DNA of 64,000 nucleotides from Candidatus Altiarchaeota archaeon (GTDB lineage Archaea; Altiarchaeota; Altiarchaeia; IMC4; SCGC-AAA252-I15). A model generated the notes under the pieces. It ran no database searches. It had not been told where the DNA came from and saw nothing but the letters and a program-made list of their open reading frames with translations. Both the position numbers and the translations under genes were made by a program. Below are positions 24,897 to 48,614 of this stretch, piece by piece (the first letter of the stretch is position 1; each line of letters starts with the position of its first letter). The stretch covers positions 5,550-69,549 of the forward strand of contig JAZDMS010000040.1 of assembly GCA_043800705.1 (NCBI GenBank). Reading direction: 5' to 3'.

Positions 24897-25631
24897 ATGG
24901 CTTCCGGGGGCCTTGGCGGCAAACGGGTCTGCGTAAACTGCGGCGAGATCGTCGAAGGGCAGGGCAACTGCCCGAAATGCGGATTCGAACCGAAGACTGT
25001 AAAGACATTCGAACGGACCAAGACAGCAGCCCCGAAACCCCCAGAAATCGAGGGGCCAATAGAGGGGCAAAAAACCGAAACCGCCCCTGCACTCTCGCCG
25101 GAGGAGGCGATCATGCAGGCCTCGAAGGAGGCGAGCGAATACCGCCAGACGCCGAAGCCTGCCAGCAAACCCGACATCAGGGTCGTAGCATTGGCGGGCA
25201 GCCTCGTAATCCTGCTGGCGCTCATCGGCCTCGTGTTCATGACATTCTCGGGAGGACTGAACCTAGACCTTTTAGGAACTACTACTACGACTACGGCGTC
25301 ATCAACCTCCACTACGTCGACGTCCTCGACTTCCACGACCACTTCCTCAACCACGTCGACGACCACATCGTCGACGACCACGTCGACGACCACTACGATG
25401 ATGTCCTTCCCCTGCTCCGTCAACATGGACTGCGGCAACGTGACCGAGGAGAGGATATGCCACCAGGGCGATGTCTACCTGAACCGGAGGACTCCGATAT
25501 GCCAGCACCCCGCGACTCCGTACGCGGTCTGCATAGAGAAGAACACGCTCGCCCGCTCGCCTGTTCAGGCGTGCAACAACGGATGCAAGGACGGGGAATG
25601 CCTGTCTATGTGGGTGAAACCTGGAGTTTAG
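24897..25631 (+). CDS. Zinc-ribbon / TM / Thr-Ser stalk / Cys-rich ectodomain protein
   Basis: CVNCG..(11)..CPKCG ribbon, TM helix VVALAGSLVILLALIGLVFM, about 50 aa of T/S only, then an 8-Cys domain (..CNNGCKDGEC..). Confidence 0.6.
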   Translation: MASGGLGGKRVCVNCGEIVEGQGNCPKCGFEPKTVKTFERTKTAAPKPPEIEGPIEGQKTETAPALSPEEAIMQASKEASEYRQTPKPASKPDIRVVALAGSLVILLALIGLVFMTFSGGLNLDLLGTTTTTTASSTSTTSTSSTSTTTSSTTSTTTSSTTTSTTTTMMSFPCSVNMDCGNVTEERICHQGDVYLNRRTPICQHPATPYAVCIEKNTLARSPVQACNNGCKDGECLSMWVKPGV

Positions 25632-25831
25632 GTGGCGGACATCCGGAAGTGGCTTCTTGGATCGACGCGCAGGTGGCTCCGGCGCGGTTCTCGCCCCCGC
25701 ACCCCCACAAGCACAGTCCACTGAAGTTATGGCTGCTGCCTTCCGGCCCTGACCAGATTCCTAAAATAGACCATCCAGTGAGACGAAGGCTCACGGTTCC
25801 GCACCGGACCCGCACGGCAACCCAAGACTCG

Positions 25832-25901
25832 CCTCCCGGCATTCAGCCCCGCCTAAGACGATTTGCGGCAACAGGCTACGCCTACCAGCCCGGCCTAGTC
25901 C
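25832..25901 (+). repeat. 70-bp direct repeat, copy 1
   Basis: CCTCCCGGCATTCAGCCCCGCCTAAGACGATTTGCGGCAACAGGCTACGCCTACCAGCCCGGCCTAGTCC matches 65/70 positions of the copy at 27402. Confidence 0.85.
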
Positions 25902-25979
25902 ACCGGTCAATGTATACGCAAAATCAGATTAAAAAACCAACCTCTCTCGCTCTTATACCTGGAAAATAATTTTTGTATT

Positions 25980-30953: not shown

Positions 30954-31062
30954 TTGGGGGAACCACCTGCTCCAGGGTGGTCGTTTATATATTCCCCCGC
31001 CTTATAGTCAAATGGGGCGGCTGACTGGTGTCATATCAAAAGCAAAATACGACGAAAAGCGG

Positions 31063-33168
31063 ATGATGATGGACAACAAAGCCAAGATAACCCTCCTATT
31101 GCTGGCATTTTCGTTCATGTGCCCCCTTGCGGGCGCGGTCGAGATAACCAGCATCAAAATCTCGGAAGACCCCGTATCCTATCTCGGTAAATTCGACGTC
31201 ACAGCCCGGCTCAGCGGGTTGTCCGGCACCGAATGCAACCTGATCGCGGAATTCTACGTCGACGACTTCCGCTTCGACACCCTCAACATCCCCTGCGGCG
31301 CAAACGAGATAGAGGGCAGATTCGACCTCTCAGCCGATGACTGGGTTGCGAAGAACGTCCAATGCGGCGTACGCCAGGCGAGGGTCGAGCTCCACAGGCC
31401 CATCGGAAACGCCCTAGTCACCAATAAAACCGTCGAAATAAACATCGGTAACGTCCCCAACGTCGAATTGAACCCCTCCCAACCAACCGCTGAGAAGGAG
31501 GTCCGGGTCATTCTGACAGACAAGGATACAGGAGACCCCCTCCAAGGCGTCGACGTCAGGGTCAAGGACATCTATGGCGGGGAAGACATATCACGTAGGA
31601 CTATACAGGACGGCTCGTTCATGTTCACCCCCAAGGTCGCAGGCGAATATCACCTGACCATGTCCAACCGGCTTATCTGCGGCGAAATGGTCATATACGC
31701 GAAGCGGCCGCTCATGATAGACGGCCCAAGGCCGGATAATCCAGTCATCAACGAGATGGTCATGGTGGCTGTCCCATCCGGCGCCAGCGTCGGCGTCAAG
31801 ATACTCGACGCCAAAGGGAATCTGTTCAGGATAGTTCCAGTAACATTCAACGGCGGCGCCAACTTCTCGATCAGCCAGCCCGGGACATACACCCTAGTAG
31901 TAGGCGACCAGAGCACAAAATACTGGCCCCTAAACCGGACATTCGTCGTCTCAGACCGCCTCATCCCGGAGGTGAAGATCGCACCCGAACAGCCGGTCGT
32001 CGGAAAAACCGCCACCATAACCGTGACCTCGAGGGGTGAACCGCTGTCCGGAGCCGTCGTGACCGTGAAGCGCCCCGACGGGGTCGACAGGGACTATACC
32101 ACGTCCGACTACGGAACCATCAACTACGAAAACGTCCCCTCCACCGGGACCTACCCCATGAAGGTCACGAAGGACAGGTTCGGAGTAGGCTCCGCCTCCT
32201 TCGAGGCGAAACATGCATTAAACGTCAAATTCGAACCCCTGAGCCCGACAGTCAAAGACACCATAACGATCATAGTCAATGACCAGAACGACAAGCCAGT
32301 CAGCGACGTCCTCGTGGAGATACCCGACACCGGATTCAAACGCATCACTGACATGGCAGGCAAGGTCAGCTTCAACCTCCAGGAGGCGAGGGAATACCGG
32401 ATAAAGCTGACGAAGGACCTCTTCTGGGACTATACGGCTCAGCTGACCCCGTACGGGCTGCTCACCTTCGGGCAGTGCCTGAGCGAATTCGAACTCGGCA
32501 ACAGCGTCGAGCTCAAGGTCTTCGACACCTTCAACAATCCCGCGTCCGCAGAATTGACCGTCCGAGACCCGGACGGCATAATCAAACCATACAGCGGCTC
32601 CAGCCAAACACTGACGCCCGACAAACCCGGCCAATACCTGGTCACAGCCAGCAAGACGAACTACATAAACTCGAACCTCACCTTCACCGTGACCCCCCAC
32701 CCGCTCGATATAAACACTACTATGGCAAAGGGGCAGCTCACCGTACAGGTAAAGAGCAAAGGCCAGCCGGTGTCTCAGATGGCAGTGTCCGTGATAAAGG
32801 GGCAGGAGACATTCAACGGCACCACGAACGAGGCGGGAGCCGCGGTATTCAGCATAAACCGCGAAGGAAACGTCTCCATCACGGCGAACCTGGGAAAATT
32901 AAACCGGAACTATGGGGAACTAACCGTGCGGCAGATCATCGTCAGGTCATACGACCTCATACTGCTGACCACACCCCTCATCATCATATTCGCGATAACC
33001 CTCATGACCATCATCGCCATACAGCTCGGCCGCATGTACCTCGGCAGCGAATGGAAGATGCCCTCTTTCGGCTCAGGCGGCGTCGGATCGCACAAGGGCC
33101 GGACGAAACACGATTCCACCCTCCTTGGCGACAAGAAGCCCCACAAGTCCCGGCTCTCGAAGATGTGA
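31063..33168 (+). CDS. Large surface protein with repeated Ig-like/carboxypeptidase-regulatory-like beta domains and a C-terminal TM anchor
   Basis: Signal peptide MMMDNKAKITLLLLAFSFMCPLAGA. Repeated ~85-aa units (..V.V.D..G.P..GA.V.V....G....T...G...F...), a C-terminal TM LILLTTPLIIIFAITLMTIIAIQL, and a basic tail. Confidence 0.6.
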   Translation: MMMDNKAKITLLLLAFSFMCPLAGAVEITSIKISEDPVSYLGKFDVTARLSGLSGTECNLIAEFYVDDFRFDTLNIPCGANEIEGRFDLSADDWVAKNVQCGVRQARVELHRPIGNALVTNKTVEINIGNVPNVELNPSQPTAEKEVRVILTDKDTGDPLQGVDVRVKDIYGGEDISRRTIQDGSFMFTPKVAGEYHLTMSNRLICGEMVIYAKRPLMIDGPRPDNPVINEMVMVAVPSGASVGVKILDAKGNLFRIVPVTFNGGANFSISQPGTYTLVVGDQSTKYWPLNRTFVVSDRLIPEVKIAPEQPVVGKTATITVTSRGEPLSGAVVTVKRPDGVDRDYTTSDYGTINYENVPSTGTYPMKVTKDRFGVGSASFEAKHALNVKFEPLSPTVKDTITIIVNDQNDKPVSDVLVEIPDTGFKRITDMAGKVSFNLQEAREYRIKLTKDLFWDYTAQLTPYGLLTFGQCLSEFELGNSVELKVFDTFNNPASAELTVRDPDGIIKPYSGSSQTLTPDKPGQYLVTASKTNYINSNLTFTVTPHPLDINTTMAKGQLTVQVKSKGQPVSQMAVSVIKGQETFNGTTNEAGAAVFSINREGNVSITANLGKLNRNYGELTVRQIIVRSYDLILLTTPLIIIFAITLMTIIAIQLGRMYLGSEWKMPSFGSGGVGSHKGRTKHDSTLLGDKKPHKSRLSKM

Positions 33169-33232
33169 TGTTTTTTAAGGCCCATAATCAATATATATCG
33201 GGGAACGGTTGGCTAAAGTAGGTGTTCCCAAT

Positions 33233-35389
33233 ATGAAGTACAGCATGGATTATTCAAGGATTTTATCAGCCATATTTTTTGTTGCCGTCCTCTTGACCGC
33301 CATACCCCCGGCTAGCGCAGCCACCGGCATAGACGACATGGAAGTCAGCGTGCCCAATTCGATTGACACAGGCGGTAACTTCGACGTCTTCGTCAAATTC
33401 ACGGCCGCAGACGACGAGAACAACGCCGACGTCGACGTCGGAATAACAGTCGACGGAGTCCTCGTGCATCAGAAGGTCAGGTCCATCGACCTTGTCGACG
33501 GGCGCAGCTACAACTTCACAATCAACTCGAACGACTTCGAGCTGGAAGAGGACGACCTCGGCAGGGTCTGGTCCGAGAACCTCATGAACTACAGATGCGG
33601 TGACAACCTGGATGTCGAAGTGACCCTCTCCGGAGACATTGAAGACACGGTCGAATCAGACAAAATCGACATCAACGGCGACGACGGAGAATTGTCAGTG
33701 TCCCTCGACCCAGAGCTGCCAGCAATCGACGAGAAGTTCATCGTGGCGGTCATAGACGAGGACGACGACGAACTGAACGGCGCATCCGTCAAACTTACCT
33801 GGACGGACTACAACAGCGGGATAGACGACGCCACATGGGACGTCGACGACAAATCCAAGATCAAGACGACGGACTCCGACGGAGAGGCCGACTTCAAGAT
33901 ATCGAATGACATGGGCAAGAGCGCATACGGCAACTACCAGATAGACGTCACAAAGGCCGACTACTGCAAAGAGACCCTGACTATGTCGGTCCTCAACGGC
34001 CTCAACATGAGCGGCCCGACGCCGGCCAACCCGAAGGCGGGCGAGCAGTTCAGGGTCAACGTCACCTCCCTCTCGGGGAAGGCTGCAATAGGCCTCATCG
34101 TGACCCTCACGCCAGGAAACGTGAAGAGCCAGGTCCTTCAGGACGGGACAGCCCCGTTCACGATAGCATCGCCCGGGTCATACACGCTCATAGTCGGCGG
34201 CGGAACCACCGGGTATGACGAGGTGATGAAGACCGTCCAGGTCTCGACGAAGTCACAGCTGACGATCGACTTCTCCTCCGCGATGCCGCCTGTCGGCAAG
34301 GAGATGACCCTAACGGTCACGGCAAATGACGCCCCCGTTGAAGGCGCGACGGTCAAGGTCACTCCGCAGGGCGGCACCGAGCAGACCGTGGGGACGACCT
34401 CAAAGGACGGCACCGTAAAATACACCCCCGCCACATCTGTAAGCTACACGGTGAAGGCCTCAAAGACCACATACGACGAGGCTACCGACACGTTCACCTC
34501 AAAGGGGACCTTCCAGATAGAGCTCCCCCCGGCATCCGACCTCAAGAAGGGCAGCCAGGTGACGGTGACAGTCAAGGACGCATCAGGCAACCCCGTCCCG
34601 GCAGCCACGGTCTACGCAGGCCCAGGGATCACAGGACCCACGGACACGTCCGGCAAATACACGTTCACGCTGCCTGACGTCGGAACATACACGATCTCCG
34701 TCACAAAGGCCGGATACTCGGACGGAACGGCGACCCTCAGCACCACCGGCCAGCTGTCCGTCAAAGTCGACAAGAAGGAGATAGCCCTCGGAGACTCGGT
34801 AAAGATAACCGTCATGAATTCTAACGGGCAGCCTGTCGAATCATCCCTGGATATAACCGGCCCGTCCGTAGGCGACACGAAAACCGCATCGGAATACTCC
34901 TACACCCCGACCAAAGCCGGAGACTACCAGGTGCGGGCGTCCAAGGCCAGCTACGGCTCATCATCCGACACCTTCAAGGTATTGTCCAAGACGGTCACAG
35001 TGACCTACATGTTCCAGGAGGACAAACTATACGTCAACGTGACAAGCGGCGGCAGGCCCCAACAGGGCGTACCCCTGACTGTCACCCTAGGTAACGCATC
35101 ACTGAAGGCGTCGACTGACTCCACAGGCATGGCGAGCGTGCCGGCGAACGAGACAGGCGAATACGTTATCGCAGTCGCAGGCCCCGACTATACGGGAGCC
35201 CCGGTGACGGCGCTGAAATCAACGACGGCGATAATCTCCGATCTGTGGGTGCCAGTCCTCATAGTGCTGGTCGTACTCGTGCTGATCGGCATATTCGCAG
35301 TCGTCGCAATCAGCCTGATGCAGCGGCGCGGAGGCGGCTCGAAGCCCACATTCAAACGCCGCTCCGACGGGACCCACCTGGGACGTTAG
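33233..35389 (+). CDS. Large acidic surface protein with repeated Ig-like beta domains and a C-terminal TM anchor
   Basis: Signal MKYSMDYSRILSAIFFVAVLLTAIPPASA. Repeated units (..V.V....G.P..GATV......T..DG...YT....G.Y...A.K..Y..), a C-terminal TM plus RRGGGSK tail. Same architecture as the upstream gene. Confidence 0.6.
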   Translation: MKYSMDYSRILSAIFFVAVLLTAIPPASAATGIDDMEVSVPNSIDTGGNFDVFVKFTAADDENNADVDVGITVDGVLVHQKVRSIDLVDGRSYNFTINSNDFELEEDDLGRVWSENLMNYRCGDNLDVEVTLSGDIEDTVESDKIDINGDDGELSVSLDPELPAIDEKFIVAVIDEDDDELNGASVKLTWTDYNSGIDDATWDVDDKSKIKTTDSDGEADFKISNDMGKSAYGNYQIDVTKADYCKETLTMSVLNGLNMSGPTPANPKAGEQFRVNVTSLSGKAAIGLIVTLTPGNVKSQVLQDGTAPFTIASPGSYTLIVGGGTTGYDEVMKTVQVSTKSQLTIDFSSAMPPVGKEMTLTVTANDAPVEGATVKVTPQGGTEQTVGTTSKDGTVKYTPATSVSYTVKASKTTYDEATDTFTSKGTFQIELPPASDLKKGSQVTVTVKDASGNPVPAATVYAGPGITGPTDTSGKYTFTLPDVGTYTISVTKAGYSDGTATLSTTGQLSVKVDKKEIALGDSVKITVMNSNGQPVESSLDITGPSVGDTKTASEYSYTPTKAGDYQVRASKASYGSSSDTFKVLSKTVTVTYMFQEDKLYVNVTSGGRPQQGVPLTVTLGNASLKASTDSTGMASVPANETGEYVIAVAGPDYTGAPVTALKSTTAIISDLWVPVLIVLVVLVLIGIFAVVAISLMQRRGGGSKPTFKRRSDGTHLGR

Positions 35390-35487
35390 CGGTCTTCGGT
35401 TCTCGGTTCTCGGTTTTCCGTCAAGACTGAAAACTGAGAACTGAAAACTGAAAACTGAAAACTGCAGACAGGAAACCGCAGACCGTG
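35390..35487 (+). repeat. Heptad-periodic long hairpin element, copy 1 (possible 3'UTR/terminator structure)
   Basis: (CGGTTCT)2 CGGTTTT CCG-tcaaga-CT GAAAACT GAGAACT (GAAAACT)3 starts 1 nt after the TAG stop. The arms pair with one G-T (G-U) per heptad. Confidence 0.7.
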
Positions 35488-35548
35488 GGCTGAAGGCCGT
35501 GGACCTCCTATTTTAAGCCTTATTCTCCTATTCTTTCTGGATACCATC

Positions 35549-36625
35549 ATGCACCTTGTCACAAACGTACTCGGATCCTTCGTCATAAAGAACGGGAATA
35601 TAATCCTGCAGGCCCTTTTCCCGCAGGATGCGATACAGGTCGCAGAAAGGCTGCGCAAGACGGAGAGATCCTTCTGCCTGGAGGAGGCAAAGCTGATAAG
35701 GGAGCTGGTCGCGACCGGGAACAGGAAGGTCGAAGTCAACAATCCCCCAAGGTTCTCGGGATCCGGGCTCAACATGGCATTCGTCAACGAGGCCGAAAGG
35801 ATCTCGGTATACAAGATAGCGACGGACCTCTACCTCGACCGCAGGGACGTCGATTCCATGGTCCGGAAGGTCAACCGCCTCCTGGTCCGCGAACGAATGA
35901 AGGAAGTCGACAAAGACCAGATCCTCATGCAGGCCGTCGACAGCCTCAACGACATAGACGAGGCCGTGAACCGCCTCGTCGAACGCCTCAGGGAATGGTA
36001 CTCACTGCACTTCCCCGAACTGGACTACATGGTCGCCGCACACGACACATACGCCCGTCTCGTCGCCGAAGTCGGGGAAAGAGGCAACTTCGCATCAGCC
36101 AAGCTCAACTTCGAGCCGAAGCTGACCGACAGGATAATCAAATCCACCGGGGACTCGATGGGGGTCGCATTCGACGAAAAAGACATCAAAGCGGTACAAA
36201 CCCTGGCCAAACCGATACTCCACCTGTACCAGACCCAGAAGGAGGTCGAGGACTACATAGGGGAACTCATGCAGGATGTGGCGCCCAACATCAGCGCCCT
36301 CGCGGGAGCCGTCCTCGGGGCAAGGCTCATATCGCTCGCACACGGCCTCCAAAGGCTAGCGACCCTCCCCGCCGGCACCATACAGCTCCTCGGCGCAGAG
36401 GACGCATTCTTCAGGTTCCTCAAGACCGGGAAGAAGCCTCCGAAGCACGGCATCATATTCCAGCTGCCTGCGATTAGGGGGGCCAGCCGCAACACAAGAG
36501 GGAAGATATCTCGCACATTCGCCGCCAAACTCGCGATAGCGGCCAAAGTAGACGCCTTTAAAGGCCAATTCATAGGCGACAAACTGAAAGCCGACCTAGA
36601 AAAGAGGATAGCATCCCTGAAATAG
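35549..36625 (+). CDS. nop5: C/D box snoRNP core protein Nop5 (Nop56/58)
   Basis: 358 aa with the coiled-coil middle and a NOSIC/Nop domain (..LREWYSLHFPEL....PNISALAGAVLGARLISLAHGLQRLATLPAGTIQLLGAE.A.FR.....KPPKHG.IFQ.P). Confidence 0.88.
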   Translation: MHLVTNVLGSFVIKNGNIILQALFPQDAIQVAERLRKTERSFCLEEAKLIRELVATGNRKVEVNNPPRFSGSGLNMAFVNEAERISVYKIATDLYLDRRDVDSMVRKVNRLLVRERMKEVDKDQILMQAVDSLNDIDEAVNRLVERLREWYSLHFPELDYMVAAHDTYARLVAEVGERGNFASAKLNFEPKLTDRIIKSTGDSMGVAFDEKDIKAVQTLAKPILHLYQTQKEVEDYIGELMQDVAPNISALAGAVLGARLISLAHGLQRLATLPAGTIQLLGAEDAFFRFLKTGKKPPKHGIIFQLPAIRGASRNTRGKISRTFAAKLAIAAKVDAFKGQFIGDKLKADLEKRIASLK

Positions 36626-41254: not shown

Positions 41255-41394
41255 ATCACTCCCCCCGCTTTATTCGGCCCCTCTTTCTTTTTCGCCAGCG
41301 TTTTTCTTTCTGGGAGAGAAAGAAAAAGGCTGGGCTTGAACCACTTCAACCTGAACGGCTGATGGACTTGAAAGTATAGGCAGACTGAAGTCAT
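41251..41394 (-). CDS. 47-codon upstream ORF whose first 19 codons duplicate the GH57 N-terminus; its stop overlaps the GH57 start
   Basis: MTSVCLYFQVHQPFRLKWFKPSLFLSLPERKTLAKKKEGPNKAGGVI*. The TGA overlaps the ATG at 41254 (ATGA). It contains a perfect 10-bp hairpin at 41301-41327. Confidence 0.4.
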   Translation of the reverse strand: MTSVCLYFQVHQPFRLKWFKPSLFLSLPERKTLAKKKEGPNKAGGVI

Positions 41395-46702: not shown

Positions 46703-47311
46703 ATGGACGACTTCATGAAGAGGAACCGCAGGTTCAGGGACGGATTCGAGGATTTCATGGGCGACGACTTCTTCGCCGAGTTCGAGGGGGAGTTCCGGAG
46801 GATGCAGGATCACATGAGCCACCTCTTCGACGAGGCGCTGAGGAACAACGAGACGGACCATGTCAGGAGGTACGTCTACGGCTTCACGATGCATACCGGC
46901 CCCGACGGGAAGCCGGTCCTGGAGGAGTTCGGCAACGTCCCCAGGCACGGCGAGGACCAGATACCCGGCGAGAGGGAGCCGATGGTCGACGTCATAGACG
47001 GCAGGGACGAGGTCACCGTCATCGCGGAGCTGCCCGGAGTCGACAAGAAGAACATAGACCTTAAGTCGGACGAGACGTCGCTGACGATATCAGTCCGCGA
47101 CCACGCCCGAAGGTACCACAAGGTCCTGGATATGCCGGGGGAGGTCGACCCCGAATCAATAAAGGCCCAGTACAAGAACGGCATACTCGAAGTCAAGCTG
47201 AAGAAGGCCAGGAAGAAGAACGGATCCAAGAGGATAAAGAACGGCATACTCGAAGTCAAGCTGAAGAAGGCCAGGAAGAAGAACGGAACCAAGAGGATAA
47301 AGGTCGAATAG
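46703..47311 (+). CDS. hsp20: Hsp20/alpha-crystallin small heat-shock protein with duplicated C-terminal strand
   Basis: ACD pattern: VDVIDGRDEVTVIAELPGVDKKNIDLKSDETSLTISV......Y.KVLDMPGEVDPESIKAQYKNGILEVKL. Confidence 0.85.
   Translation: MDDFMKRNRRFRDGFEDFMGDDFFAEFEGEFRRMQDHMSHLFDEALRNNETDHVRRYVYGFTMHTGPDGKPVLEEFGNVPRHGEDQIPGEREPMVDVIDGRDEVTVIAELPGVDKKNIDLKSDETSLTISVRDHARRYHKVLDMPGEVDPESIKAQYKNGILEVKLKKARKKNGSKRIKNGILEVKLKKARKKNGTKRIKVE
47177..47302 (+). repeat. Perfect-frame 63-bp tandem duplication inside hsp20 (2 x 21 codons)
   Basis: NGILEVKLKKARKKNG(S/T)KRIK is encoded twice. There is one nt difference (TCC/ACC) in 63. Confidence 0.95.
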
Positions 47312-47341
47312 GGTTTAAAGCCCCGTTGTGTATATTGTTCC

Positions 47342-47772
47342 ATGTCCAAGCTGACGGGAACCGTCGAGGACAAAGGCGGCGGGGCCTGGGTCTGGGTCGC
47401 GGCAGCGGCCGCAGTATCGTTAATTTTCCTGGTGTCAGGGGGGGTAGTGGCTGCGTGGTATCTTGTTTCCACGAGCACCACGACCACGTCCTCGAGCACA
47501 ACGACCTCCTCCTCCGCGTCGACGTCGTCCACGACGTCACGACCTGGTCGACCACCACCACCTCAGTGACGACAACGTCGACCAGCACCACGTTGGCGCC
47601 GATAGAACTGGCTACAACGTCGACCATCTCCCTGAAGTGCGGCGGCCTCTATCAGCGGGCCTGCCAGGGCGGAAAATGCAGCCACGGGCTCGCCCCCGGC
47701 GCCAACAACCTCTGCAGACCCTCTAAAAGCGCATCAAAAGGGCCTAACCCGTTCCTGGACAAGTGGACGTAA
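47342..47772 (+). pseudogene. TM / Thr-Ser stalk / Cys-rich domain protein split by a 1-nt frameshift in the stalk
   Basis: The frame starting at 47342 gives MSKLTGTVEDKGGGAWVWVAAAAAVSLIFLVSGGVVAAWYLVSTSTTTTSSS.. and stops at 47569. The frame ending at 47772 continues ..TTWSTTTTSVTTTSTSTTLAPIE..LKCGGLYQRACQGGKCSHG..NNLC. The switch lies near 47537-47541. Confidence 0.5.
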
Positions 47773-47810
47773 TTGCAGTCACCTGTCTACGGTCTTGGGT
47801 CATGTTGGGT

Positions 47811-47890
47811 GTCTTCGGTTTTCGGTTTTCGGTTTTCCGTTTTCCGTCAAGACTGGAAACTGAGAACTGGAAACTGGGGACTGCGGACCG
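47811..47890 (+). repeat. Heptad-periodic long hairpin element, copy 2
   Basis: CTT (CGGTTTT)3 CCGTTTT CCG-tcaaga-CTG GAAACTG AGAACTG GAAACTG GGGACTG. It shares the core GGTTTTCCGTCAAGACTG.AAACTGAGAACTG with copy 1 and lies between convergent gene ends. Confidence 0.7.
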
Positions 47891-47894
47891 GGGA

Positions 47895-48614
47895 CTATTT
47901 TAGTTTCCGCGCTACGGTCAGGAATCCCGTATGTCCGAGCATTCGCGTGTCAGGGGACATCTTGTCTGCCTTCCAGTCCCTTAGCATGGTCTCAAAGGTC
48001 TCATGGAGCCAGGTGGTGCCCAGCACCTCCACCAGTTGCCTGTTCTGGTTGATGCTCGGCGAGTATGATACGAGTATCCCCCCGACTTTCAGGGCCCCCT
48101 CCAGTTTAGGCACTACGCGCCATGGTTCCGTCAGGTCCAAAAACACGGCGTCGAGGCCCTTCTCGTCTATCCCGTTGTATGTGTCCCTCAGCTCGAGACG
48201 GACGTTCTTGGCGCCGAACCTCTCGAAGTTCTTCTTCGCTATCTGCGCGAAGTCCTCCCTCAACTCGTAGGTGACTACTGTTTCAGGATGCACGATGTGG
48301 CTCAGATAAAGCGTGAAGAGGCCGGAGCCGGTTCCGGACTCGAAGACCCTGCTGCCTGAGCGGATGCCGGAATAGGCGACTGCGAGGCCCATGTCCTTCA
48401 GGGTCATCGCCTGCGGGCCGCGTCGGGCTTTGGAGATGTAATCTAGGATGTTCGGCTCCAGGACCGCGAATTTTATCCCAGTATTAGATTCCAGCACCGC
48501 CCCCGGCTGGGCGGCTGCGATGGCGTCAGCCTTCACGACCCCGTATTTGGTATGGAGGTCGTTTCCGTCGTTGACCAGGTACCTGTCGCCTTTGGAGTCT
48601 ATGAGCAGACGCAT
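47895..48614 (-). CDS. trmI: tRNA (adenine-N1-)-methyltransferase TrmI/Gcd14 family
   Basis: MRLLIDSKGDRYLV.. N-terminal beta domain, FESGTGSGLFTLYL SAM motif, D.VFLDL..PW. Start chosen so that the AT-rich tract at 48615-48678 is intergenic. Confidence 0.75.
   Translation of the reverse strand: MRLLIDSKGDRYLVNDGNDLHTKYGVVKADAIAAAQPGAVLESNTGIKFAVLEPNILDYISKARRGPQAMTLKDMGLAVAYSGIRSGSRVFESGTGSGLFTLYLSHIVHPETVVTYELREDFAQIAKKNFERFGAKNVRLELRDTYNGIDEKGLDAVFLDLTEPWRVVPKLEGALKVGGILVSYSPSINQNRQLVEVLGTTWLHETFETMLRDWKADKMSPDTRMLGHTGFLTVARKLK

Follow-up and report, generated by a model that had tools for sequence, protein, structure and literature searches.

Two heptad-repeat palindromes flush with gene ends

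The window analyzed here, a 64-kb stretch of contig JAZDMS010000040.1 (GenBank assembly GCA_043800705.1), contains two copies of an inverted array of heptanucleotide repeats of the form (CGGTTYT)4-5, CCGTCAAGA, (CTGRRAA)4-6, with decayed outer heptads and a length of about 110-125 nt. The window is archaeal, with a signal recognition particle (SRP) RNA of the archaeal type (25633-25905, minus strand), a G+C content of 56%, and Nop5 and TrmI proteins that are closest to proteins named Candidatus Altiarchaeota. Both copies of the element abut genes, both lie at sites that are empty in the relatives that could be compared, and both are built of the same heptad as a large set of bacterial palindromes.

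Copy 1 (35390-35505) begins one base past the TAG stop codon of a gene encoding a protein that combines Ig-like and CarboxypepD_reg domains with a signal peptide and, at the C-terminus, a membrane anchor with a basic tail. The initial annotation, which placed a hairpin with heptad arms immediately 3' of a surface-protein gene, is thus borne out by both the sequence and the domain content. The features around copy 1 are as follows:

33209-35389, plus strand: surface-protein gene upstream of copy 1, TAG stop codon at 35387-35389
35390-35417, plus strand: left arm, heptads CGGTCTT, CGGTTCT, CGGTTCT, CGGTTTT
35418-35426, plus strand: centre, CCGTCAAGA, identical in copy 2; hairpin loop region
35427-35461, plus strand: right arm, heptads CTGAAAA, CTGAGAA and three times CTGAAAA; on the minus strand, four CAGTTTT units
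35462-35505 (end approximate), plus strand: decayed right heptads enriched in G and C, CTGCAGA, CAGGAAA, CCGCAGA, CCGTGGG, CTGAAGG, CCGTGGA
35508-35515, plus strand: CTATTTTA, a TATA-box-like 8-mer about 35 nt ahead of the nop5 ATG
35549-36625, plus strand: nop5 (aNOP56), the next gene after copy 1 on the same strand

Copy 2 (47790-47897) has decayed heptads at its outer edges and runs right up to the stop codon of trmI, a convergent gene. The open reading frame (ORF) ahead of it on the plus strand, which spans 148 codons and is called as 105 amino acids (47455-47772), is an orphan that has no Pfam match, finds only itself among 5.8 billion proteins, and shows no Met-initiated hydrophobic N-terminus resembling a signal peptide. 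The earlier description of this ORF as a second secreted-protein gene is therefore not upheld. Copy 2 and its neighbors comprise:

46703-47311, plus strand: HSP20 gene, which in relatives converges directly on trmI
47312-47789, no strand assigned: lineage-specific extra DNA of about 480 nt between HSP20 and copy 2, enclosing the orphan call
47790-47815, plus strand: decayed left heptads, CGGTCTT, GGGTCAT, GTTGGGT, GTCTT
47816-47843, plus strand: left arm, three times CGGTTTT and CCGTTTT; together with the GTCTT lead-in, it pairs to the right arm
47844-47852, plus strand: centre, CCGTCAAGA
47853-47894, plus strand: right arm, CTGGAAA, CTGAGAA, CTGGAAA, CTGGGGA, CTGCGGA, CCGGGGA
47895-48614, minus strand: trmI (tRNA m1A57/58 methyltransferase), with the stop codon 47895-47897 touching the base of copy 2

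The 8-mer CTATTTTA recurs at the right boundary of copy 2 (47895-47902), where it overlaps the trmI stop codon; it may be part of the element or a coincidence.

The two copies are homologous

The heptad arrays clearly exceed chance: the heptad pattern has 12 matches in the window against 1.7 expected, a count reached in none of 100 shuffles, and an 18-mer core occurs twice against an expectation of 0.03. Tandem Repeats Finder also picked up the arrays with a period of 7. Copies 1 and 2 align over 61 nt with 90% identity (E = 2e-15), as anticipated by the initial annotation, which had noticed a second copy with the same core. No third stretch elsewhere in the window resembles them. Because the common centre, CCGTCAAGA, is not repetitive, the copies must derive either one from the other or from a shared source; they are homologous and share an ancestry.

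Both copies can fold into long hairpins, and the predicted stabilities of the two strands are unequal. The RNA fold of copy 1 has -43.0 kcal/mol on the plus strand (z -5.7) and -35.8 kcal/mol on the minus strand (z -3.7), and that of copy 2 has -42.3 kcal/mol on the plus strand (z -4.5) and -16.1 kcal/mol on the minus strand (z 0.08); inclusion of the outer heptads brings copy 2 to -57 kcal/mol. DNA energy parameters give the same ranking of the strands (copy 2, minus strand, z 0.3). The proposal that folding is favored on the plus strand accordingly holds for both copies, and strongly so for copy 2. In the gapless register, copy 1 has 23 Watson-Crick pairs, 4 G-U pairs and 2 A-C mismatches, that is, not the single mismatch originally reported, and copy 2 has 23 Watson-Crick pairs, 9 G-U pairs, no A-C and 1 other mismatch.

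The copies also differ in the placement of tracts of four T residues. Copy 2 carries five T4 tracts on the plus strand and none on the minus strand, whereas copy 1 carries one on the plus strand (35414-35417) and four on the minus strand, so that the repeated left-arm T4 tracts of the initial annotation are a property of copy 2 but not of copy 1. In the right arm of copy 2, A residues turned to G, and these G residues pair with T of the left arm, as G-U, on the plus strand only; the left-arm T4 tracts stayed intact.

Each right-arm heptad CTGARAA (35427-35461 in copy 1) contains TGA and, since 7 and 3 have no common factor, three successive units close all three reading frames of the plus strand. 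In the bacterial consensus described below (CAGTTCT / AGAACTG), the frames are closed on both strands.

Both sites are empty in relatives

Comparison of orthologous sites covered the syntenic relatives with readable DNA or gene coordinates. The gene order FtsZ, phosphoglycerate mutase, GNAT, surface gene 1, surface gene 2, nop5 is kept in these relatives. The spacer between surface gene 2 and nop5 is 159 nt long in the window vs 28 nt in three relatives (L121, L122 and L123; Nop5 65% identical), 3 nt in L124 (61% identical), and 28-29 nt on the contigs of P0002 (71%) and P0003 (69%). The spacer between the convergent trmI and HSP20 genes, 583 nt long in the window, is 0 nt in L125 (trmI 79% identical), 5 nt in L243 (87% identical) and 22 nt on the P0125 contig (84% identical). 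Thus, where the same gene order is found, relatives have 3-29 nt at the copy 1 site and 0-22 nt at the copy 2 site, contrary to the initial view of the hairpin as a conserved element. No heptad arrays were detected in 108 kb of related archaeal DNA, and exact-core searches of genomes, metagenomes and viral contigs gave no further useful copies. With both sites empty in relatives, both copies lie in lineage-specific DNA gained by the lineage of the window, and the element is conserved at neither site.

The extra DNA that precedes copy 2 (47312-47789) also contains short repeats of 9 and 21 nt, and the orphan ORF within it is rich in His, Thr and Cys. Just upstream, the 3' end of the HSP20 gene carries a 63-bp tandem duplication, 98% identical (47174-47302), that repeats 21 residues (KNGILEVKLKKARKKNG[ST]KRI) present once in relatives.

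Palindromes built of the same heptad in bacteria

A gapped pattern consisting of two CGGTTYT-type and two RRAACTG units retrieved 47 genome loci against about 0.06 expected by our calculation. Nearly all of these loci are bacterial and most belong to Acidobacteriota, the others coming from Verrucomicrobiota, Planctomycetota, Bacteroidota, Chloroflexota, Deltaproteobacteria, Actinomycetota and Clostridia. A strand-symmetric pattern retrieved at least 119 loci, with several per genome. Heptad palindromes were found in nine viral contigs as well, so that the family is present in phage or prophage DNA too. Three IMG/VR contigs (L244, L246 and L247) each contain a pair of dissimilar heptad hairpins separated by about 2 kb, each hairpin lying in the gap between a stop codon and the start codon that follows it.

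The typical bacterial element (loci L128-L242) consists of 4+4 heptads around a loop with a median length of 22 nt, has the consensus TTCTCAG / CTGAGAA with CGG, CCG and GGAA variants, and takes up about half of a spacer of about 117 nt. The gene context is co-directional in 68%, convergent in 18% and divergent in 14% of the cases. The median distance is 11 nt to gene 3' ends (n=92) and 21 nt to 5' ends (n=93), and bacterial elements show no preference for 3' ends. Rfam searches gave no match for the bacterial elements in 17 loci. Clustering of the flanking ORFs, directed at a shared mobilizing gene family, returned only orthologous housekeeping neighbors. For the element in the window, Rfam 15 reported nothing at the gathering threshold, the sub-threshold matches being only to generic hairpins (miRNA precursors).

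Several bacterial elements occupy orthologous sites across species of Acidobacteriaceae, namely, the spacers rpsM (S13)-rpsK (S11) (L100, L101, L143, L226, L238), hslV-hslU (L118, L140, L204, L214) and tRNA gene-prs (L076, L147, L178, L193, L212), with a further site beside a sensor kinase and sigma-54 response regulator pair. At these sites, the element starts 0-5 nt past the stop codon and ends 2-8 nt ahead of the next ATG. The whole intercistronic spacer is thus taken up by the hairpin, and a free ribosome-binding site would not fit in, an arrangement suggestive of enforced translational coupling or mRNA processing; being located inside operons, the hairpin cannot be an efficient terminator there. 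Such positions, together with the orphan ORF ahead of copy 2, also run counter to the proposal that the element is specific to envelope genes. At the orthologous sites, loops diverge while the heptad sequence is kept, and the paired positions co-vary (odds ratios 3.5, 6.4 and 17; p 3e-3 to 1e-6, uncorrected for shared descent).

The elements in the window share with the bacterial palindromes, (CRGTTYT)n - loop - (RRAACYG)n, the heptad itself, including the TTCT/AGAA and TTTT/AAAA variants, the CGG/CTG variants, the 4+4 architecture (4-5 clean units per arm in the window), and the tight association with ORF ends (copy 1 lies 1 nt past a stop codon and copy 2 touches the trmI stop; the median gaps in bacteria are 11 nt to 3' ends and 21 nt to 5' ends). 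They differ in having a centre of 5-9 nt as opposed to lineage-specific loops with a median of 22 nt, and in that bacterial sites are often conserved inside operons whereas the sites in the window are empty in relatives. The element is best read as an archaeal member of the class of intergenic inverted pairs of heptameric repeats, and its heptad is that of a large family in Acidobacteriota and several other bacterial phyla.

G-U pairing and strand orientation

A transition mismatch appears as G-U on one strand and as A-C on the other, so that only a consistent direction is informative. In 116 unbiased bacterial elements, the means are 1.64 G-U and 1.62 A-C per stem and the orientation is random (summed differences of 154 vs 156 +/- 11 simulated). 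The more stable strand in co-directional bacterial cases is the sense strand 24 times and the antisense strand 27 times. Given the balanced mismatches and the lack of a tie to gene direction, a G-U bias is not a trait of the family. The two copies in the window differ in this respect, jointly having 13 G-U pairs and 2 A-C mismatches (two-sided binomial p ~0.007, our calculation). However, the CGG:CTG design is shared by descent and heptads duplicate, such that few independent events underlie the G-U count. The asymmetry fits selection on the plus-strand RNA fold, the preservation of intact left-arm U4 tracts, or strand-biased A-to-G mutation. Taken as a whole, the first reading of the hairpin is partly supported.

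Origin and possible roles of the element

With slightly better than even confidence, we interpret the element as a palindromic heptad-repeat element resembling the repetitive extragenic palindromic (REP) sequences, recently gained at two sites, kept by replication slippage and arm-to-arm correction, and transcribed, by virtue of its position, as a 3' stem-loop that plausibly, though secondarily, affects the stability of the 3' end, terminates part of the transcription and insulates nop5. Under this scenario, the element would have arrived or expanded in two intergenic spacers, normally very short, of a single Altiarchaeota-like lineage, in both cases flush with stop codons, and the arrays would have been retained and resized through slippage and correction between the arms, possibly with the involvement of a factor that recognizes the heptad. 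Because copy 1 begins one base past the stop codon, the surface-protein mRNA is expected to include it as the 3' end, and the stem-loop formed there would measure about 27-33 bp. This stem-loop could protect the 3' end, and the U4 tracts could cause some termination or insulation, which fits copy 2 well and copy 1 poorly. The insertion of copy 1 would also have separated nop5 from the upstream gene, leaving nop5 with a TATA-like box of its own.

Several observations weigh against this interpretation. Only two copies are present in the 64 kb, and none further of this subfamily was found in the genome, metagenome and viral collections: a 17-mer core gave 72 matches in the genome collection that we judged to be chance, the centre CCGTCAAGA had no bacterial match beyond chance, and longer cores had no matches in either metagenomes or viral contigs. 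Inspection of the flanks revealed no convincing target-site duplication and none common to both copies, and Pfam scans of the 48 ORFs in the window returned no transposase or integrase family. On the P0122 contig (trmI 87% identical), for which the spacer length alone is known, trmI is separated from its neighbor by about 700 nt; the trmI spacer may be an insertion hot spot. The identity of the heptad with that of the bacterial family could reflect convergence given that only the 7-mer and the architecture are shared. Finally, the 9:0 ratio of G-U to A-C in copy 2 is more one-sided than that in any of the 116 bacterial elements (maximum difference 7), which hints at a strand-specific constraint that a purely selfish element would not need.

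The Pfam result for these 48 ORFs also led us to reject an autonomous transposon. Among the features of a miniature inverted-repeat transposable element, inverted arms are present, and inspection of the flanks showed no duplication shared by both copies.

The alternative that retains most of the initial annotation holds that the element is a dedicated plus-strand terminator or 3'-end stabilizer of highly expressed envelope genes, in which the G-U pairs reflect selection on the transcript. This explanation accounts directly for the position of copy 1 immediately past a true surface-protein gene, for the better folding of the plus strand in both copies, for the excess of G-U over A-C, and for the right-arm substitutions in copy 2 that spared the T4 tracts of the left arm. 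Termination in Methanococcus maripaludis is signaled by U4 tracts, two or more of which raise the efficiency and constitute the minimal binding site of aCPSF1 (Li et al. 2021, PMC8716108). The five sense-strand tracts of copy 2 are in keeping with this pattern, yet there is no convincing gene directly upstream, the preceding ORF being an orphan that is not evidently secreted; copy 1, which does follow such a gene, has a single U4 on the relevant strand against four on the opposite one, and no T run after the stem. The archaeal U-tract terminators (aCPSF1/FttA) share with the element a location directly past a stop codon but need no hairpin (PMC8716108). The other surface-protein gene in the window (31012-33168) ends with a plain T6 tract, with T5-T7 tracts at other genes. 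Considering also that both orthologous sites are empty in all readable relatives, that the G-U positions are not independent, and that the bacterial family lacks a strand bias, we regard a dedicated module as unlikely.

Two more specific RNA candidates were examined and rejected. For a bacterial-type intrinsic terminator, a scan of 35000-36000 gave no plus-strand site, and the stem is followed by CTGCAGACAGG, without a T run. A C/D box small RNA was considered because nop5 follows copy 1 and CUGA recurs; the C box (RUGAUGA) is absent, with no TGATGA in 35380-35549, and the match to sR17 scores 11 bits against a gathering score of 36.

Alternatively, the element could act at the DNA level as a binding array for a nucleoid-associated protein, a regulator or a recombinase, with the hairpin potential as a by-product. 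Conservation of the heptad sequence itself, beyond pairing, over many sites and phyla speaks for such an array, as does the absence of a strand bias in bacteria; four units per arm are preferred here as in Xanthomonas (PMC4692102), and binding of IHF or HU has been proposed for similar paired arrays of Geobacter (PMC2700814). However, no candidate protein has been named, the co-variation between arms argues that pairing or arm-to-arm copying matters, and the centre is far shorter than in bacteria. Furthermore, copy 2 is a poor DNA palindrome, with no fold on its minus strand. On balance, a binding array appears distinctly unlikely.

Independent local slippage at each site, involving neither mobility nor any relation to the bacterial family, is consistent with the gradual decay of the outer heptads, and no other long simple repeats are as over-represented in prokaryotes as heptanucleotide repeats, a fact attributed to polymerase slippage (Mrazek 2007, as cited in PMC4679880). 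This process would not, however, yield an identical non-repetitive centre of 9 nt and 61 nt of alignment at 90% identity, and we consider it very unlikely. An error of assembly, or the fusion of bacterial DNA with an archaeal contig, is barely credible: the heptads are otherwise almost exclusively bacterial and the source is evidently a metagenome contig, but the copies are short, unlike each other in detail, and embedded among intact archaeal genes in an order conserved in relatives.

Relationship to known repeats and significance

The REP elements and bacterial interspersed mosaic elements of enterobacteria are likewise short, multicopy palindromes located in transcribed intergenic regions, often past stop codons and within operons, and can stabilize the upstream mRNA against 3' exonucleases. 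They differ in that REPs are not heptad-periodic, contain a conserved GTAG motif, and are linked to the REP-associated tyrosine transposases (RAYTs). A REP/RAYT system proper was rejected for the window, where the element has no GTAG-type motif and Pfam finds no transposase family among the 48 ORFs. The short tandemly repeated repetitive heptamers of cyanobacteria are grouped here with the TAACTGA repeats considered below.

The closest parallel in organization is provided by the (GGGAATC)n heptameric repeats of Xanthomonas, with 70-75 inverted repeat pairs per genome (Rehm et al. 2015, PMC4692102). These are tandem 7-mers with a preference for about four units, are intergenic, lie near stop codons or touch them, are rarer between divergent genes, often form two convergent arrays capable of making a stem-loop, vary in length between relatives, and appear in transcripts on both strands. 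Unlike the element described here, the Xanthomonas heptad is found in a bacterial host and is G-rich, being interpreted as G-quadruplex-forming, a property to which its four-unit preference was attributed, and 83% of the sites are shared between species (PMC4692102), as opposed to two sites that are empty in relatives. CTGAGAA lacks G tracts and nevertheless shows the four-unit preference, so G-quadruplex formation cannot explain the preference in this heptad, and the case argues against it as the general reason.

Geobacter metallireducens has paired tandem-repeat sites of classes 1-3, of which class 3 consists of five MTYCTGA heptads (Aklujkar et al. 2009, PMC2700814). Like the palindromes analyzed here, these are multicopy intergenic arrays of 7-9-mers paired on opposite strands, and class 3 shares the CTGA core; the distance between the paired arrays is variable, the repeat sequences are different, and binding of IHF/HU was proposed without a test. 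The TAACTGA repeats of marine Beggiatoaceae, Cyanobacteria and Bacteroidetes (MacGregor 2015, PMC4679880) also consist of a CTGA-containing heptad (CTGATAA vs CTGARAA), are intergenic, adjoin ORF boundaries, and have a patchy spread across phyla. In contrast to the arrays described here, they are nearly always direct, with 169 direct sets and one indirect set in the Beggiatoaceae genome, and are located mainly just upstream of start codons, where a role in translation has been proposed.

The kind of element is hence already known, whereas the CTGARAA palindromes and their archaeal occurrence are apparently undescribed; our literature search found no description of either. A broader proposal, which we put forward as speculative and fairly unlikely, is that the 4+4 inverted CTGARAA arrays at gene boundaries in at least eight bacterial phyla, some viral contigs and this archaeon, with sequence and pairing conserved at orthologous operon sites, reflect an unrecognized, widespread trans-acting factor or mobilization mechanism that recognizes repeats of 7 nt. 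In that case, the copies in the archaeon would have been acquired recently across domains and would be in the process of adaptation as plus-strand 3'-end structures, in line with the one-sided pairing and intact U4 tracts of copy 2.

Three aspects of the system offer testable handles on whether such repeats act on mRNA ends, translational coupling or DNA: the archaeal case is recent enough for comparison of filled and empty sites; a heptad family that is not G-rich shows the same four-unit preference and closeness to stop codons as the Xanthomonas repeats; and the hairpins persist inside essential operons of Acidobacteriaceae (rpsM-rpsK, hslV-hslU). For annotation, the lesson is that a striking hairpin past a gene is not in itself a terminator.

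Other features of the window

Several further repeats and terminator-like sequences were noted. The A+T-rich region 880-1600 holds two adjacent paralogous winged-helix genes (HTH_24, Lrp/AsnC-like; 939-1487 and 1585-2136), the first of which is followed by T5, T7 and T5 tracts, an example of ordinary terminators in this genome. A 17-bp hairpin with a 5-nt loop (41295-41333; CCAGCGTTTTTCTTTCT / AGAAAGAAAAAGGCTGG) lies between GH57 and sulfatase genes; it is not heptad-periodic and, with its T-rich and A-rich arms, resembles a bidirectional terminator. Tandem repeats of 12, 15 and 39 nt (CGTCGACGACCAC...) that overlap palindromes are clustered at 25306-25398, a few hundred bases from the SRP RNA gene, and both this cluster and the SRP RNA gene fall inside a long ORF (24977-25969) that we suspect to be spurious.

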